NCBI RefSeq assembly: GCF_023161965.1
Contig: NZ_JALNTY010000003.1
Location: forward strand, 11,271 to 43,270
Direction: 5' to 3'
Length of the DNA: 32,000 bases
DNA from: Anaerosoma tenue
GTDB taxonomy: Bacteria; Actinomycetota; Coriobacteriia; Anaerosomatales; Anaerosomataceae
Shown one piece after another: positions 9,331 through 18,507 of the stretch. The translations under genes were made by a program, and so were the position numbers. Numbering within the stretch: the stretch's first letter is position 1; each line of letters begins with the position of its first letter. The notes under the pieces are model-generated. The model searched no databases. It saw nothing but the letters and a program-made list of their open reading frames with translations, and was not told where the DNA came from.

Positions 9331-10149
9331 GTGAGCACACTCACCCGAAAGTACGACGACCTGCGCAACCGCCTGGCCAACCTCGGCAGCGCGCTGGTCG
9401 CATACTCTGGCGGCGTAGACTCCACCTTGCTCGCCTTCACGGGACACGTGGTGCTCGGCGAGAAGTGCCTCGCGGTGATCGCCGTCTCCGACGTGCATCC
9501 CGCCTCCGAGATCGACGAGGCGCGGGCCACGGCGCGTTCGCTCGGCCTGAACACGTACGAGGTCGAGACGTACGAGCTCACCGACCCTCGCTTCCAGTCG
9601 AATCCCCCCGATCGCTGCTACTACTGCAAGGCCGAGATGTTCTCCCTGTTCCGGACCATCGCCACCACGCGAGGCATCTCATGGGTGCTCGACGGGACCA
9701 ACGCCGACGACCCGGGACAACACCGCCCCGGGCTGCGCGCGATCAGCGAGTTCGGTGTGGTGAGCCCGCTCCTGGATGTGGGCCTGCACAAGGACGAGAT
9801 CAGGGCGCTTTCCGAGCAGCTCGGCCTCCCCACGTGGGACAAGCCCTCAGGCGCGTGCCTCGCCACACGGTTCCCCTACGGCACACCTATCACCGAGGAG
9901 GACCTCGACCGTGTCGCGGTCGCGGAGGCTGCCGCACGGAGACTGGGGCTCAAGCAGGTACGCGTACGCTCGCACGGCGACATCGCCCGGATCGAGGTCG
10001 ACCCCTCGGAGATGGAGCGTGCCTTCGCGCTGCGCGAGCAGCTTGCGGCGGGTGTGCGCGCGGCGGGCTTCGAGTTCGTCACGCAGGATCTCGACGGGTA
10101 CCGGAGCGGCTCCCTCGACGAGGGACTCGAGGAGCCCCGGAGCGAGTAG
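9331..10149 (+). CDS. larE: PP-loop ATP pyrophosphatase of the LarE / TIGR00268 type (putative sulfur transferase)
   Basis: GTG start with AAGGAA upstream. PP-loop motif [10 protein letters not shown], plus CYYCK and [11 protein letters not shown], which gives a three-Cys set. The length (272 aa) and C-terminal region [14 protein letters not shown] are typical of the family. Confidence 0.65.
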
Positions 10150-10567
10150 CGCGCACGGCCGACGACCGCCTGACCCATGCCACCGCGATGCCCAGCAGTA
10201 CCGGGACGGCGGTGAACACCTGGGTCGACGCGAGGACTCCGGTCGGCGAGTCCATCGACGGTCCGAGGAGCGCGAGTGCCATGACCACGCCGAGGTACGC
10301 GACCGAACCGGTCCAGACGCCCGCGCGGTTCCGCTCGAACCGCGCCACCCGGCGCACGAGACCGTACGCGATGACGCCGAGCGTCGCCAGCCCGCCGCCC
10401 CAGACCGACCACGCTACCGCCCCCATCACGCCCTCGTCTTCGATGCGAAGGAAGTAGACCGCGAAGAACGGCAGCGCGTACAGCACGTACTGGAACGCGG
10501 CGGCGATCACTATCAGCACAACCGGTACGGCCAGCGCCACGATGATGGTGCGCATCGTGCGAGTCAT
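10079..10567 (-). CDS. Hypothetical integral membrane protein (about 4 TM segments, Arg-rich tail)
   Basis: Begins MTRTMRTIIVALAVPVVLIVIAAAFQYVLYALPFFAVYFL. Its ATG shares one base with the upstream gene's TGA (TGATG). The 3' 71 nt overlap the convergent larE-like gene. Confidence 0.55.
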   Translation of the reverse strand: MTRTMRTIIVALAVPVVLIVIAAAFQYVLYALPFFAVYFLRIEDEGVMGAVAWSVWGGGLATLGVIAYGLVRRVARFERNRAGVWTGSVAYLGVVMALALLGPSMDSPTGVLASTQVFTAVPVLLGIAVAWVRRSSAVRATRSGAPRVPRRGSRSGTRRDPA

Positions 10568-10989
10568 CACGCCACCGCGGTCCACCGGTGTTCGCCTAGT
10601 GTCACGAAGGCGATCGTAAGTCCGATCAGGGCAGGCAGGGCGATCCCCGGCTCGTAGACCCCGGCAGGGTCACCTACGGTCGCGAATCCCAACCATACGA
10701 CCGGAGACACCGCCAGTCCCGGCCAGACGCACCATGGAACAGGCCTGCGGCGACCGATCATCTTGATCGTCGCATGTATGACGCCCGCATACACGCCCAG
10801 CCCGCCGATAAGAGCGAGCATATACGCGGCAACACCTGCGTACTCGCCCAGGCGCAGCACGACGATCACCGCCATGGCCATGCCCAACGACGTCATGAGC
10901 AGGACGTATGGCACCACGCCGCCCGCAATGACCGCCCCCAGCCCCCACAGGATTCCACGTCCCCAGCCGAGCTGTGCCGATCGAGTCAT
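10567..10989 (-). CDS. Hypothetical integral membrane protein (about 4 TM segments)
   Basis: Begins MTRSAQLGWGRGILWGLGAVIAGGVVPYVLLMTSLGMAMAVIVVL. GGGGGAG lies 6 nt upstream of ATG 10989. ATG 10995 is an alternative start. Confidence 0.6.
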   Translation of the reverse strand: MTRSAQLGWGRGILWGLGAVIAGGVVPYVLLMTSLGMAMAVIVVLRLGEYAGVAAYMLALIGGLGVYAGVIHATIKMIGRRRPVPWCVWPGLAVSPVVWLGFATVGDPAGVYEPGIALPALIGLTIAFVTLGEHRWTAVA

Positions 10990-12417: not shown

Positions 12418-12759
12418 CTACTCGCCGAGCTTGCGGAGGATGGTCTCCAGCAGCGACTCCATGGTGTCGAGTCGGCCGCGCAGCTCGGCGACCTCGAAGC
12501 GGATCTCGTCCAGTGCGGGATCGGATTCCTTCTCCTCCGAGACCTGCTCACCACGGGCGCGCGCCTCGAGGTCGAGCTTGAGCTTCTCTTTCTCCTCCTC
12601 GACCATCGCCGCGAGGCCGTCCACGAACGCATCCCGTCCACCCGTCATGCCCTCGGGCCCTTCGGCAATGCCCCGCCGGATCGCGGCCTTGATCTCCTCA
12701 TCCGCGGCCTCATGCGTGAAGAGCCACGTTGCGAAGAACCGCATCACGTCGTCCGTCAT
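12418..12759 (-). CDS. Hypothetical acidic coiled-coil protein (113 aa), first gene of the UbiB operon
   Basis: MTDDVMRFFATWLFTHEAADEE...EEEKEKLKLDLEARARGEQVSEEKE...EIRFEVAELRGRLDTMESLLETILRKLGE. The stop lies 9 nt before the ubiB-like ATG. A phasin-like identity is only a guess. Confidence 0.55.
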   Translation of the reverse strand: MTDDVMRFFATWLFTHEAADEEIKAAIRRGIAEGPEGMTGGRDAFVDGLAAMVEEEKEKLKLDLEARARGEQVSEEKESDPALDEIRFEVAELRGRLDTMESLLETILRKLGE

Positions 12760-12851: not shown

Positions 12852-14951
12852 CTACTCGCCGCGGGCGGCTGCCGCTCCGCCCAGGAGACGCAGGCCGTTC
12901 GCGATCACCACGAGAGCGATGCCGGTGTCGGCGAAGACCGCCATCCACAGGGTGGCGTGACCCGTCATCGCGAGCGCGAGGAACACCGCCTTGACGGCCA
13001 GCGACAGGGCGATGTTCTGCCTCACGATGCGCATCGTCCTGCGCCCGAGGCCGATGAACCGCGGGAGGGCCGACAGGTCGTCTCCCAGAAGCGCGACGTC
13101 GGCGGTCTCCAGCGCGGTCTGGCTCGCCGCGGCTCCCATCGCGATGCCGATGTCGGCGCTCGCGAGGGCAGGGGCGTCGTTGATGCCGTCGCCCACCACC
13201 GCGACCGGTCCGTACGCCTCGCGCAGCTCGCCCACGGCATCGGTCTTCCCTTCGGGAAGAAGACGTGCGCGGTACTCGGAGATGCCCGTCATCTCCGCTA
13301 CGCGAGCTGCCGCGGCGGGGTTGTCACCCGTGAGCATGACCACGTGCGCCACCCCGCCCAGGCGAAGGTCCGTGACCGCACGCGATGCGTCGGAGCGCAC
13401 CGCATCGGCAACGCCCAGCAAGCCGATCGCACGCATGTCGGAGCCGTCACCGGTCGCCACGACGAGCACGGTGAGACCGCGCTCCTCCAGCGCCAGCGCC
13501 CCCGCATCCGTCTCGCCCGACATCACGCCGAGCTCCCCGGCATACGCGGCGCTGCCGACCGAGACACGCACGCCGTCCACCTGCGCGGACACGCCCTGCC
13601 CGGGCGTCTCGACGACCCCGCTCACCGCTTCCGAAGCAGGCGCCGCGGCGGCCGTCACGGCAGCCGCCAGCGGATGATTGGAGTGCGCCTCCACGGCGGC
13701 CGCCAGGGATGCCACCCGTTCGACCGGTTCGTGGCCCAGCGCGATCGTCTCGATCACCACCGGGCGCCCCTCGGTAAGGGTGCCCGTCTTGTCGAACGCC
13801 ACCACCCCGACGTGAGCGGCGCGTTCGAGGAAGGCGCCCCCCTTCACCAGCACGCCGTCCCTGGTGGCCCGCGCGATCGCGGAGACGATGGCCACGGGCG
13901 TGGAGACCACCAGCGCGCACGGACACGAGATCACCAAGAGCGTGAGCGCGCGGTAGACCCATTCGCGCCACCCCTCGATCCCCACCCACCCCGGGCTGAG
14001 TCCCCCGAGGAACGGCCCGCCGATGGCGACCGCCGCCGCCGCGACCATCACGATCGGGGTGTAGACGCGACTGAACCTGTCCACGAACCGCTGCACGGGC
14101 GCACGGCTCGCCTGGGCCGCTTCGACCAGGTGGACGATGCGAGCAATCGTGGTCTCGGCTGCCGGAGCCGTGGTCACGATCGCCACAAGGCCGGAGGTGT
14201 TGAGCGTGCCCGCATAGACGGTGTCGCCGGAACGCTTGTCCACAGGCAGCGACTCGCCCGTGATGGGCGACTCGTCGAAGGCCGACACACCCTCGGCCAC
14301 CACTCCGTCCAGCGGTACACGCTCACCAGGACGCACCACGATCGTGCCCCCCACAGGCACATCGGCAGGCGCGACCTCGATCTCGCCCTCATCCATCCGC
14401 AGACGCGCACGCTCGGGCGCGAGTGACATGAGCTCCCCGATCGAGCGCCTGGTGCGCGCGACCGACCGCGACTCCAGCATGCCGCCCAACGCAAACAGGA
14501 CGATCACGGTGGCCCCTTCGCCCCACTCGCCCAGCGCGGCGGCGCCACTCACCGCAAGCGTCATGAGCACGTTCATGTCGAGCGTACGCGCCATGAGCGA
14601 CGTCACCGCGCGTCGCCACACCAGTGAGCCACCGACGATGATCGCCAGCGCGAACGCACCCACCGAGGGTACTTCCGACGCTAGACCCCCGAGAAGCCAT
14701 CCGAGCACGAGGAGGATCGACGCGATGCCCACGCGGATCTCGGTCCGGTTCTTCACCCACCACGAGACAGCCGGGAGCGGCGGTCCGCCCTCGGAATCGA
14801 CCGCCTCGATACCGTGACCGGCGCCGACCACCGCGGCAACCGCGGCGCCGCGCGGATCCGCTTCGGGGTCGTACTCCATGAGCAGCAGCCCGCTCGCGAA
14901 GTTGACGTCGGCGGATACGACGCCGGGGATCTGCCGTACGGACGCGGCCAC
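12852..14951 (-). CDS. Heavy-metal P1B-type ATPase (Zn/Cd/Pb subtype), conventional ORF from GTG 14951; probably the 3' part of a longer gene
   Basis: Carries SCPCALVVSTP (CPC), FDKTGTLTEG, MLTGDN, VGDGINDAPAL, a TM7 Lys (LAVKAVFL) and TM8 ADTG...NGLRLL, as in ZntA/CadA-type pumps. The N-terminus VAASVRQIPGVVSADVNFASGLLLMEYDP is an HMA domain that lacks its first strand and CxxC. Those elements lie upstream in the same frame, across a TGA. Confidence 0.9.
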   Translation of the reverse strand: MAASVRQIPGVVSADVNFASGLLLMEYDPEADPRGAAVAAVVGAGHGIEAVDSEGGPPLPAVSWWVKNRTEIRVGIASILLVLGWLLGGLASEVPSVGAFALAIIVGGSLVWRRAVTSLMARTLDMNVLMTLAVSGAAALGEWGEGATVIVLFALGGMLESRSVARTRRSIGELMSLAPERARLRMDEGEIEVAPADVPVGGTIVVRPGERVPLDGVVAEGVSAFDESPITGESLPVDKRSGDTVYAGTLNTSGLVAIVTTAPAAETTIARIVHLVEAAQASRAPVQRFVDRFSRVYTPIVMVAAAAVAIGGPFLGGLSPGWVGIEGWREWVYRALTLLVISCPCALVVSTPVAIVSAIARATRDGVLVKGGAFLERAAHVGVVAFDKTGTLTEGRPVVIETIALGHEPVERVASLAAAVEAHSNHPLAAAVTAAAAPASEAVSGVVETPGQGVSAQVDGVRVSVGSAAYAGELGVMSGETDAGALALEERGLTVLVVATGDGSDMRAIGLLGVADAVRSDASRAVTDLRLGGVAHVVMLTGDNPAAAARVAEMTGISEYRARLLPEGKTDAVGELREAYGPVAVVGDGINDAPALASADIGIAMGAAASQTALETADVALLGDDLSALPRFIGLGRRTMRIVRQNIALSLAVKAVFLALAMTGHATLWMAVFADTGIALVVIANGLRLLGGAAAARGE

Positions 14952-14969
14952 GGTCCGCGCGCAGTCAGG

Positions 14970-14972
14970 TCA
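14970..14972 (-). other. In-frame TGA at the first-Cys position of the GLD-C-PDC-A motif: candidate selenocysteine codon or nonsense mutation
   Basis: Frame check: 14972 to 14951 is exactly 7 codons (TGA CCT GAC TGC GCG CGG ACC GTG). Read-through gives YRLEGLD[TGA]PDCARTVAASVRQIPGV, colinear with ZntA SGMDCAACARKVENAVRQLAGV. Confidence 0.5.
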
Positions 14973-15233
14973 ATCGAGCCCTTCGAGCCGGTAGACCGCG
15001 TGCCCCACGACGCCTGCCTCGTCCAGCGCCAGGCGTTCCACCAACTCCTCGAGCGACCTCTCCTCAAGGGACTCAGGATCGTACGTCACGGTGAGGGTGC
15101 CGCCCTCGAGGTCGCAGCGCGTTTCGAGAACGCCGGGCACGTCATCGAGCCCCCGGCACACCCGCCCGGCGCACCCGGCGCAGTACCGCGGCCCCGGCAG
15201 CAGCCGTGTCAGGTCGAACGAGCGTGTCGTCAT
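14970..15233 (-). CDS. N-terminal metal-binding region of the same ATPase (called as a separate 87-aa ORF if TGA is read as stop)
   Basis: MTTRSFDLTRLLPGPRYCAGCAGRVCRGLDDVPGVLETRCDLEGGTLTVTYDPESLEE...GHAVYRLEGLD-TGA. It contains a first CxxC-containing HMA-like module and then strand beta1 of a second HMA domain. ATG 15233 (or GTG 15248) follows the ABC-2 permease stop closely. Confidence 0.6.
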   Translation of the reverse strand: MTTRSFDLTRLLPGPRYCAGCAGRVCRGLDDVPGVLETRCDLEGGTLTVTYDPESLEERSLEELVERLALDEAGVVGHAVYRLEGLD

Positions 15234-15252
15234 GTGCGGCACGCCCACCGCC

Positions 15253-16050
15253 TCACGCAGCGTCCCTGCGCCGGAACACGACCACTGCCGCCACGGCGGA
15301 TACCAGCGCCACGCCGCCGTACAGCCACCACGCCGCCGCGTCCACCGGGTCGCCGTTGATGATCTTGCCCGGTTGCCAGTAGCTCACGATGTTGATCGGG
15401 TCGAAGAGCTCGGCGGCTTCCGAGAAGTTCGATACGAGGTCGGCGATCCACAACACCACGAGCACGCCGGCGGCGATGGCACCGGGTTTGCCGGCGCCTC
15501 TGAAGATCGCCGACAACATGAGCGTGAAGCCACCCACGGCCAACATGAAGAGCAGGCCGAAGGCGAACAGCGTCCAGAACGTGTCCCAGGGCAGGTCGAT
15601 GTCGTACTTGGGCCCGAACACCATGATGGGCACGAAGCTCGCCGCGGCCAGCGCGAGCGAGTACCCCACCATCACTGCGATGCGGGTAATGGCCAGCCGT
15701 GCGCGCGAGACAGGCTGCGACAGCACGAATTCCATCGTGCCCTCGGCTATCTCACCGGCGAACGCCTTGGCGGAGTAGATGATCAGCGCCGACGCGACGA
15801 TCACCATCCACATGAGTCCCAGATACTCCGTCTGGAAGTACCCCCCGAGCGACGCGAAGGACACCTCCGTGCCGCCGAAGATCGCCAGCACCTCGGCCGG
15901 CATCGTCTCCACGAGCTCGGCGTACTCGTTACCGCCGATCTCGGGATAGAACCAGGTCATCATCCAGGAGTACAGGACGAGGCCGAACGAGAACCAGAAT
16001 ATGGACACGCGGTTCTGGTGGAGCGTGCCCCGCAACAGCGTCCAACTCAT
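15253..16050 (-). CDS. ABC-2 family transporter permease
   Basis: 265 aa and about 6 TM segments (MSWTLLRGTLHQNRVSIFWFSFGLVLYSWMMTWFYPEIGG...). An ATGA overlap links it to the upstream ATPase gene. Confidence 0.8.
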   Translation of the reverse strand: MSWTLLRGTLHQNRVSIFWFSFGLVLYSWMMTWFYPEIGGNEYAELVETMPAEVLAIFGGTEVSFASLGGYFQTEYLGLMWMVIVASALIIYSAKAFAGEIAEGTMEFVLSQPVSRARLAITRIAVMVGYSLALAAASFVPIMVFGPKYDIDLPWDTFWTLFAFGLLFMLAVGGFTLMLSAIFRGAGKPGAIAAGVLVVLWIADLVSNFSEAAELFDPINIVSYWQPGKIINGDPVDAAAWWLYGGVALVSAVAAVVVFRRRDAA

Positions 16051-17109: not shown

Positions 17110-17772
17110 GTGATCCGCTTGACGACGAAGGATCCCGTCACGAAGACGACGCTCTGGGTGGTAGTGGCCGTGGTGCTCGCCCTGGCGGTTGGAGCGCTGG
17201 CGGGGTGGTTCGCCCGCTCGGGAGAGGTCCAAGACCTGGAGGACCGCATCGCAGCCTCGGAAGAGGAGTCCGCGACGGATGAACCGGCGGCGCCCGCCGA
17301 ACCGGAGACGGACACGGCGCCGGTGGAACCGCCTGCCGAGGAGGAGCCCGCCGAGGAGGACGAGGAGCCCGTTGACGTTCCCGTTGCTGCCGAGCGTGTA
17401 CCGGCAATCATCACCGCGGTCGACACGAGCGGGTCGACGGTGCGCCTTGAGGCGGACTACATCCAGTTCCTCACCGGTGACGAAGCGGCCGATGCGGCGA
17501 CCGCCCACGGCGACGAATCCCCCCCGCCCAACGACTACTACATCGTCAACGACAACCCCGCGCTCCGGGAGTTCCCAGTGCAGGAGGGCATCAGCGTCGT
17601 GACGGTCGTCAACGATGATGGGACCTCGGATCCGGCTGGACACACGCTCACATTGGACGAGTGGGTGGATCGCATCACGGGCCCCAACGCCGACGCGTTC
17701 AGGTCGAGCTTCTACTGGATCACCGTCTCGGAAGCGACCATCACGACCATCGAGCAGCAGTACCTGCCGTAG
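17110..17772 (+). CDS. Membrane-anchored protein with acidic Pro/Glu-rich linker and uncharacterized C-terminal domain (paralog 1)
   Basis: N-terminal TM segment TTLWVVVAVVLALAVGALAGWF, then linker ATDEPAAPAEPETDTAPVEPPAEEEPAEEDEEP, then a C-terminal domain with LEADYIQFLTGDEAADAA...FYWITVSEATITTIEQQ. The start is uncertain (GTG 17110 or TTG 17119). Confidence 0.7.
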   Translation: MIRLTTKDPVTKTTLWVVVAVVLALAVGALAGWFARSGEVQDLEDRIAASEEESATDEPAAPAEPETDTAPVEPPAEEEPAEEDEEPVDVPVAAERVPAIITAVDTSGSTVRLEADYIQFLTGDEAADAATAHGDESPPPNDYYIVNDNPALREFPVQEGISVVTVVNDDGTSDPAGHTLTLDEWVDRITGPNADAFRSSFYWITVSEATITTIEQQYLP

Positions 17773-17781
17773 GAGGCTCCG

Positions 17782-18507
17782 ATGAAGTGGAGCGAGTTCT
17801 CTCGCACGCAGCGGGCTCTAACGATCGCGGGAGTCGTGGTGCTCGGCCTGGCGGTCGTCGCCGGAGCCTTCGCGCTCGGGCTGGGGCTTGGCGACGGCCC
17901 TGAAGCGGCCACTGATACCGCAACAGACGCCGCCGAGACCACCGGGACCGCCGAGACCACGTCCACCGAGGAGCCAGCGACCGAGACGGTGGAGCCCGAG
18001 ACGCCGCCCGCCGCCGAGCCCGAACCCGAGCCCGATCCGTCGACCCCTGCGGCAACTCCCCCTGCGGAGGACGCGCGCGTCTTCGGCCGGATCGAAGGCA
18101 TACGCGATGAGAGCGGCGGGGCGTGGACGGAGTTGTGGGTGGACATCGACACGGCGGTCTTCCTCACCGACGACGCCGCGCTTGACTGGCTCACCAGCCA
18201 GGGGGACGCCGAGTTCTACAACGCCGACTACTGGTACGCGAAGCCCGACGGCGCGGCGGTCACATCGCACCGCCTGAAGCCGGGCTCCGTCAAGGTGTGG
18301 ATGTACACGTACCCGACCACGCCTCCGATCGGCTTCTACGGGCCGGGTATGGCGAAACAGACGGTCGGCTTCGGCGAGTTCTACGATGCGATCTACATGG
18401 CAGGCGACCCCGACGGCCTGCTCGACCGCTACTACTGGTTCACGGTCGACGGCGACTACATCACCATCATCGAGGAGCAGCCGAGAGACGCCTACTACGA
18501 GCCGTAG
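17782..18507 (+). CDS. Membrane-anchored protein with acidic Thr/Pro/Glu-rich linker and uncharacterized C-terminal domain (paralog 2)
   Basis: ATG with AGGAGG 5 nt upstream. TM segment ALTIAGVVVLGLAVVAGAFALGLGLG, an acidic linker, then LWVDIDTAVFLTDDAALDW...YYWFTVDGDYITIIEEQ, colinear with the upstream gene's domain. Confidence 0.75.
   Translation: MKWSEFSRTQRALTIAGVVVLGLAVVAGAFALGLGLGDGPEAATDTATDAAETTGTAETTSTEEPATETVEPETPPAAEPEPEPDPSTPAATPPAEDARVFGRIEGIRDESGGAWTELWVDIDTAVFLTDDAALDWLTSQGDAEFYNADYWYAKPDGAAVTSHRLKPGSVKVWMYTYPTTPPIGFYGPGMAKQTVGFGEFYDAIYMAGDPDGLLDRYYWFTVDGDYITIIEEQPRDAYYEP

Follow-up and report, generated by a model that had tools for sequence, protein, structure and literature searches.

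Predicted selenocysteine (Sec) forms of the COG2217/TIGR01525 metal-transporting ATPases, in which Sec takes the first position of a CxxC pair (UxxC), have been catalogued since 2007. The gene considered here is a mis-annotated member of this group, encoded on the minus strand of a 32,000-nucleotide stretch of the Anaerosoma tenue genome (contig NZ_JALNTY010000003.1, positions 11,271 to 43,270; hereafter the window). An in-frame TGA at 14970..14972 splits it into two annotated open reading frames (ORFs), and judging from its sequence and that of its relatives this codon is very probably a conserved Sec codon that replaces a metal-binding Cys, not a mutation. The predicted selenoprotein ATPase appears in Zhang and Gladyshev (2007; PMC1976440), in a GOS study of 2008 (PMC2398784), where the UxxC form of pfam00122 counts 1 Sec against 882 Cys homologues, in Peng et al. 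(2016; PMC5029168), with 25 organisms and 32 proteins, and in two reviews from 2022 and 2026 (PMC9312934, PMC13188914), which place it under COG2217/TIGR01525 with ABB15669.1 as example and leave the role of Sec in such transporters unsettled.

By catalogue description and family model, the gene in the window shares with these proteins its membership of the TIGR01525 P1B ATPases, a UxxC motif with Sec first, the existence of Cys homologues and a stem-loop after the UGA. It differs from them in its carriers, which are high-G+C metagenome-assembled genomes (MAGs) labelled Coriobacteriia or Actinomycetota, in being annotated as two ORFs in public records, and in a TGA:Cys ratio of 33:8 within a subfamily recognised by x-P-D-C-A...A-D-x-N-F-A, as opposed to the 1:882 found family-wide in the GOS data. 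The same catalogues list predicted Sec forms of MerP, of MerT-like proteins and of mercuric reductase (UxxU), where the suggested part of Sec is likewise to bind soft metals and not to take part in redox reactions; they are not P-type ATPases but a reductase and small proteins of the periplasm or the membrane. Like the N-terminal metal-binding domains discussed below, MerP belongs to the HMA fold class.

The ATPase gene and its in-frame TGA

The minus strand from 15248 to 12852 constitutes one reading frame whose sole interruption is the TGA at 14972-14970 (...VGHAVYRLEGLD-TGA-PDCARTVAASVRQIPGVVSADVNFASGLLLMEYDP...). The ORFs on either side of it, 14970..15248 (92 amino acids) and 12852..14951 (699 amino acids, with a GTG start), share this frame, and the nominal GTG start of the second (14951-14949) lies 7 codons 3' of the TGA. 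Taken together, the common frame, the Pfam and NCBIfam models and the alignment with ZntA indicate that the two ORFs are a single gene, predicted to encode a ZntA-like P1B-2 P-type ATPase exporting Zn, Cd or Pb (12852..15248, minus strand), with a product of ~793-798 amino acids when the UGA is read through. The true start is uncertain among GTG 15248, GTG 15242 and ATG 15233; GTG 15242 shows the best spacing from a GAGG at 15254-15251 and is also kept in the related locus L004. The split annotation, as a 92-residue 'HMA protein' and a 'partial P-type ATPase', recurs in related public records, e.g. NCBI P0001.

With the TGA translated as Cys (793 amino acids), the read-through product matches HMA in two stretches, E1-E2_ATPase and Hydrolase (HAD) in Pfam. 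It passes the cutoffs of the heavy-metal P-type ATPase model TIGR01525 (559 bits, cutoff 346) and of the cadmium family model TIGR01512 (492 bits, cutoff 313), and its score of 365 bits for the Cu-type model TIGR01511 falls under the cutoff of 397. BLASTP against Escherichia coli ZntA (b3469; N-terminal domain 1MWY/1MWZ) gives 40% identity over 713 amino acids, beginning at YRLEGLD[U]PDCARTV / WKVSGMDCAACARKV. The G-x-D-C-x-x-C site, the CPC, the DKTGT, the transmembrane Lys and the Asp of A-D-T-G are all aligned between the two proteins, with LAVKAVF / LGLKGIF and FADTG / LADTG among the aligned pairs. The transmembrane CPC metal-translocation motif (C437-P-C439) is encoded at 13917..13925 and the catalytic Asp of the DKTGT phosphorylation motif (D481) at 13791..13793, both on the minus strand. 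All the hallmarks of the P1B-2 (Zn/Cd/Pb) group are present, namely the CPC, the transmembrane Lys, the A-D-T-G Asp, a cadmium model above its cutoff and a copper model below it, and an earlier note on this DNA, which had assigned the protein to the Zn/Cd/Pb-type P1B ATPases, was right on the strength of the two family models and the identity to ZntA.

The proposed Sec codon (14970..14972, minus strand; residue 88 counted from ATG 15233) corresponds to the first Cys of the CxxC motif in the second of two N-terminal HMA domains, both by phmmer against PDB chains and by BLASTP against ZntA, and would supply the first ligand of a D-U-P-D-C site. In the phmmer search this position matches the leading Cys of the GMxCxxC motifs of ATP7B and Bacillus subtilis CopA, and ZntA 1mwy is also among the matches. 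ZntA has a Cys where the UGA stands here: its counterpart of YRLEGLD[U]PDC is WKVSGMDCAAC, and the Asp encoded directly 5' of the UGA (GAT, 14973..14975) aligns with the Asp of GMDCAAC. The corresponding site in ZntA is D58/C59/C62. HMA domain 2 (14799..14999, minus strand) is made up of beta1 (YRLEGLD), the U-P-D-C loop and alpha1 (ARTVAASVRQ...), and it is with this domain that the one N-terminal metal-binding domain of ZntA is colinear. The frame and the PDB and ZntA alignments bear out the earlier note in placing the TGA exactly on the first metal-binding Cys with both ORFs in one frame, and the Pfam HMA match agrees with the alignments that the annotated GTG start cuts through the HMA fold.

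Unlike ZntA, which has one HMA domain, the protein encoded here carries an additional one upstream. This HMA domain 1 (15033..15182, minus strand; Pfam HMA stretch 18-67) contains ordinary cysteines in an atypical arrangement, Y-C-A-G-C-x2-R-V-C ... R-C-D, and in the upstream translations of most TGA forms the four-Cys pattern Y-C-x-x-C-x2-R-V/L-C ... x-C-D/E is conserved; the whole domain is absent from the related loci L043, L046, L049 and L053. Next to the Sec-containing HMA domain 2, it may bind a structural or a second metal.

A reassigned genetic code was considered and rejected. TGA ends six neighbouring genes, amtB, glnK, glnD, acs, the ABC-2 permease and the ABC ATPase, and therefore the code is not reassigned; the Pfam matches of amtB, glnK and the ABC-2 permease extend to 2-10 residues from the TGA stop. 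The earlier note had called TGA a genuine stop for amtB, glnK, glnD and the ABC ATPase, which was confirmed, the reach of the Pfam match to the stop being shown for amtB and glnK.

Conservation of the codon and of the RNA that follows it

The TGA is found at the identical codon in 7/7 related loci (L001-L007), at amino-acid identities of 62-98%; six of the seven are MAG contigs, and the labels are Coriobacteriia or Actinomycetota. A first protein search gave 6 matches with a 240-residue query and a later one gave 1 match with HMA domain 2 alone, the word index being sparse for so low in complexity and G+C-rich a protein. The two closest database proteins likewise begin just past the motif, and on their contigs, too, this codon is TGA. 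A scan with one genome per species yielded five further carriers (62-98% identity), namely UBA6811, SpSt-1145 and MAGs with Actinomycetota or Coriobacteriaceae labels, and each has TGA at this codon. Metagenomes were then covered with the pattern TGH CCN GAY TGY GC, 46 N, GCN GAY NTN AAY TTY GC, which accepts TGA, TGC and TGT equally. Of the 41 contigs that it matched, 33 have TGA and 8 a Cys codon (TGC or TGT), a ratio that holds only for the x-P-D-C-A...A-D-x-N-F-A subfamily, since the pattern was derived from TGA forms. Overall, 35 distinct TGA sequences were collected from independent assemblies, reaching down to ~45-55% protein identity.

In P0003 and the 8 metagenome homologues the site reads D-C-P-D-C instead of D-U-P-D-C, and the Cys forms are scattered between TGA forms in a rough neighbour-joining tree, L069 falling, for instance, within the L049/L065/L077 group. 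The orthologue alignment has TGA or TGC/TGT at this codon and conserved flanks on both sides, as the earlier note had anticipated for a Sec codon. Zhang, Fomenko and Gladyshev (2005; PMC1088965) recognise bacterial selenoproteins by homology through at least two Cys homologues and two or more distinct sequences with an aligned TGA, and both are found here.

Between lineages, dS amounts to 0.5-1.4, with synonymous sites near saturation, and dN/dS is 0.16-0.57 upstream of the TGA and 0.09-0.33 downstream of it, values that indicate purifying selection on both flanks. The best-conserved stretch upstream is beta1 (YR-x-x-GLD). In L043, L046, L049 and L053 the gene starts only ~22-25 codons before the UGA, and for that reason the upstream piece is not a separate protein in these loci.

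Two of the related ATPases depart from the others at the C-terminus. The one in L003 (UBA6811 contig DKEX01000063.1) is 92-100% identical to that of the window for ~600 residues and then continues with an unrelated C-terminus (...MAASSVSVVSNALRLRWFKG), which resembles that of copper-type ATPases. Either the MAG contig is a chimera or the gene is a recombinant. In L005 (JAZIGI010000083.1) the last 40 residues (…GRGRGRRGGALGVGARGGGGRVL) are unlike those of the other ATPases compared, probably because a frameshift or a misassembly lies close to where this 4.5-kb contig ends.

Conservation extends to the nucleotides that flank the UGA. The Asp codon before it is GAT in 35/35 distinct TGA forms and in 4/8 Cys forms, with a usage of GAC 24 : GAT 7 across the ATPase gene, and a C stands immediately 3' of the UGA in every form. 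This suggests that GAU-UGA-C is a required recoding context, or else that the RNA element reaches upstream of the UGA. Around the UGA, 6/10 of the degenerate codons with an invariant amino acid are also invariant in nucleotide sequence, against a background of 23% (permutation p ~0.009).

Minimum-energy folding brings all lineages into the same hairpin, spanning nucleotides (nt) 7-45 counted from the U of the UGA (14928..14966 in the window, minus strand). Its family-wide structure consists of a 5-6 bp stem, CGGAC/GUCCG (+G.U), closed by a 9-nt loop that begins with C-GUG-G. In the window the 5' arm of the upper stem is G-CGGAC (14953..14958, nt 15-20; codons GCG CGG ACC), the apical loop is C-GUG-GCCGC (14944..14952, 9 nt; C-GUG-G-NN-AA in most relatives) and the 3' arm is GUCCG-U (14938..14943, nt 30-35; codons TCC GTA), so that the annotated GTG 'start' at 14951-14949 is the conserved GUG of the apical loop. 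The hairpin drawn in the earlier note (14935-14961) is correctly positioned and is the predicted minimum-energy fold of this RNA; its inner CG/CG pairs and UGGC tetraloop are confined to the window and its near relatives, and the fold in the window has a 4-nt loop as against the 9 nt conserved in the family.

A stem of at least 5 bp with an apical loop that starts 15-19 nt past the UGA occurs in 34/35 TGA forms and in 0/8 Cys forms. The same configuration is reached by 21% of synonymous-codon shuffles, and the Fisher test gives 6e-8, a generous value since the sequences are related. The codons of the stem are nearly constant in the TGA forms, CGG being used in 31/35, ACC in 34/35 and TCC in almost all; the Cys forms are not constrained at any of the three and have CGC, CGT, CGG, AGG or GCC and ACG, ACC, AAG or AAT at the CGG and ACC positions. 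GTA, a rare Val codon in the ATPase gene (5/92), is invariant in five MAG lineages and used in 19/35 TGA forms, and minority TGA forms place other stems at the same site, CGCAC/GUGCG (loop CGUGA) and GCGCGG/CCGCGC. In pair counts, 84.8% of cells are paired, and sliding the partner lowers this to 26-44%. Only in the UGA forms is the UGA position followed by a hairpin whose register is fixed.

We compared this hairpin with the selenocysteine insertion sequence (SECIS) of E. coli fdhF using the same folding tool. Both are hairpins of ~40 nt that begin a few nucleotides past the UGA (nt 3-42 in fdhF, 7-45 here), with a loop ~18-19 nt from the UGA that contains G-U (G23-U24 in fdhF, G22-U23 here). 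They differ in showing no sequence similarity, in the size of the loop (4 nt in fdhF, a conserved 9 nt here) and in the bulged U17 of the fdhF SECIS, of which no equivalent is evident here. The selenoprotein criteria of Zhang, Fomenko and Gladyshev (2005; PMC1088965) also call for a stem-loop downstream whose small apical loop contains a G, and the structure described here, located right after the UGA, has this consensus feature. These likenesses lead us to infer that the hairpin is a bacterial SECIS.

Competing explanations for the UGA

A number of results weigh against reading the UGA as Sec. The stability of the hairpin does not exceed that of dinucleotide shuffles (z -0.3 to -1.5) or of synonymous-codon shuffles (mean z ~0), in keeping with the caution of the earlier note that in GC-rich DNA the hairpin alone is weak evidence; because the DNA has 67.5% G+C, stability carries no signal, and position and register were tested instead. 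Formal covariation is weak (0.091 versus 0.080, a value reached by 21/500 shuffles) because the main stem hardly varies and most of its pairs not at all, and support comes from the alternative stems at the same place rather than from compensatory pairs. Rfam gave no match between 14700 and 15300 at permissive E-values other than three unrelated ones at chance level (E 3.4-4.8). The TGA forms are moreover interrelated, and the comparison of 34/35 with 0/8 overstates the number of independent observations.

The decoding machinery was likewise not seen. ARAGORN found no tRNA-Sec in the window and 47 loci, which says little as the loci are short, and tblastn with E. coli SelA, SelB and SelD found no selA, selB or selD in the window and the other 78 loci (~0.9 Mb), the sole match being a weak one to a GTPase domain. 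The related loci are fragments that each cover at most ~21 kb of the carrier genome (883 kb in all), which makes the absence uninformative rather than negative. When a large protein collection was searched with E. coli SelA, only Enterobacteria were found among the 120 matches listed. A crude scan for TGA-interrupted frames in the window and the related loci did not convincingly reveal a second selenoprotein; the same scan recovered the TGA-interrupted ATPase in ~24 loci. In the literature we found no experimental study of Sec in P-type ATPases and no report of selenium incorporation for the family, and nothing relevant on OPB41 together with selenocysteine. The Sec trait is present in some Coriobacteriia, such as Eggerthella, Cryptobacterium and Collinsella aerofaciens (supplement of PMC5029168).

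The interruption might instead be a fresh nonsense mutation or mark a pseudogenised N-terminus, for which a single TGC-to-TGA change would suffice, in a context where a hairpin by itself is unremarkable given 67.5% G+C. The same TGA is nevertheless present in 35 distinct sequences down to ~45-55% protein identity, and upstream of it frame and sequence are preserved, with dN/dS well below 1 at dS ~1. The earlier note had named the TGC-to-TGA lesion as the competing explanation and upstream decay or frameshifts in close relatives as its sign; the persistence of the TGA at dS 0.5-1.4 with an upstream dN/dS of 0.16-0.57 refutes the former, and the upstream region turned out to be intact. Given the conservation of the TGA across lineages and the purifying selection upstream, a lesion is scarcely credible, and it was rejected. 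A sequencing or assembly error, a general possibility for any codon read only once, was rejected as practically negligible in view of independent NCBI, ENA and JGI assemblies that all show TGA. More serious is a conserved split gene, in which the UGA is a real stop and an HMA domain 1 protein of ~92 residues is made separately from an ATPase that lacks its N-terminus and whose translation restarts at the GTG. Two ORFs are indeed annotated, both by gene callers and in the NCBI record for P0001, and a GTG or TTG is found 7 codons past the TGA in 34/35 distinct TGA forms. Such a split would, however, cut HMA domain 2 between beta1 and the metal loop and cost it a ligand, yet beta1 is the best-conserved part of the upstream region; no Shine-Dalgarno-like sequence precedes the GTG, L067 has GTC in its place, and the upstream 'protein' would be only 22-25 residues long in L043, L046, L049 and L053. 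Continuous Cys-form homologues are also interspersed in the tree, and the GTG is better read as the GUG of the hairpin loop because the Cys forms have ATC, CTC, GCC or CTT there. With this evidence we consider a split gene highly improbable.

The UGA could also be recoded to a residue other than Sec, either as Cys, Trp or Arg by near-cognate read-through or through a Sec-like tRNA charged with Cys. In E. coli, termination at UGA is leaky when a C comes next, as it does in every form collected here, and no Sec genes were found in the short loci examined. Simple leakiness would not, however, select for a hairpin whose register is fixed and whose GU loop has an fdhF-like spacing, and the position is one where Sec and Cys stand for each other within a family that the catalogues list among UxxC selenoproteins, so that we give non-Sec recoding very little credence. 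The reading as a Sec codon, towards which the earlier note had leaned, is supported by the conservation of the TGA, by the Cys homologues and by the UGA-specific hairpin.

Genomic context, proposed mechanism and significance

The window is an ordinary chromosomal region with 67.5% G+C. Its genes include uvrA, amtB, glnK, glnD, SDR, acs, ABC1 kinase, the ATPase, the ABC-2 permease and the ABC ATPase, and further uvrB, coaE, rpsA, polA, glnA, GNAT and glutamate synthase. The genes for the ABC ATPase, the permease and the metal ATPase lie next to one another, and the Coriobacteriia MAG locus L001 has the same two ABC genes upstream of its metal ATPase in the same order. Within 15251-15255, the TGA that ends the ABC-2 permease gene shares nucleotides with a GAGG that may serve as ribosome-binding site for the ATPase start at GTG 15242. 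This arrangement suggests that the three genes form one operon with translational coupling.

Directly 3' of the ATPase lies an ORF of 113 amino acids (MTDDVMRFFATWLF...; 12418-12759, minus strand) whose C-terminal half is charged and coiled-coil-like, with the ABC1-kinase gene next in the window. It matches no Pfam family even at an E-value of 0.1. The ORF adjoins the ATPase in 16 other loci with 46-98% identity, including the Cys-form locus L075, and from this distribution it looks like a conserved partner of the ATPase. Three other ORFs, 17110-17772 (+), 17782-18507 (+) and 10079-10585 (-), have a coding-like G+C content at third codon positions and no Pfam match above threshold, and two of them sit between the ABC transporter and uvrB.

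If the UGA at 14972-14970 is decoded as Sec, the second N-terminal HMA domain would acquire a D-U-P-D-C metal site. During translation, SelB.GTP.Sec-tRNA(Sec) would bind the hairpin while the ribosome sits on the UGA, leading to insertion of Sec in place of termination; the UGA would lie ~11-12 nt upstream of the upper stem, with an apical loop that starts 17 nt past it, as in E. coli fdhF. In the protein, the selenolate may combine with the Cys after it and the Asp before it into a cytosolic site that binds metal in order to sense it or pass it on. A selenolate, being softer and of lower pKa, could provide tighter binding or faster exchange of Cd, Pb, Hg or Zn, and transport itself would be performed by the ordinary transmembrane site of CPC, Lys and Asp.

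To our knowledge, the Sec of nearly every characterised selenoprotein serves redox chemistry. The catalogues already include predicted soft-metal exporters in which Sec would be a direct ligand within the metal-binding domain, and a Sec codon in this ATPase does not overturn current understanding. What distinguishes the present group is a subfamily with a Sec majority, a natural Sec/Cys series and the invariant GAU-UGA-C context. It is tempting, if somewhat doubtful, to regard Sec as the ancestral and majority state of a Coriobacteriia-centred clade of high-G+C ZntA-like ATPases, with SECIS variants of its own, an obligatory GAU-UGA-C and a selenolate that serves as a non-redox ligand of Zn, Cd, Pb or Hg. 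If true, such a clade would reverse the usual picture of rare Sec forms among many Cys forms and would provide a transporter in which a non-redox role of Sec, as a metal ligand, is open to practical testing. The 35 TGA and 8 Cys variants with their hairpins provide natural Sec/Cys pairs for the study of metal affinity and selectivity and of lineage-specific SECIS elements. For the organisms themselves, the correct product of the gene would be one selenoprotein, and its presence implies that its uncultured Coriobacteriia-like carriers decode Sec.

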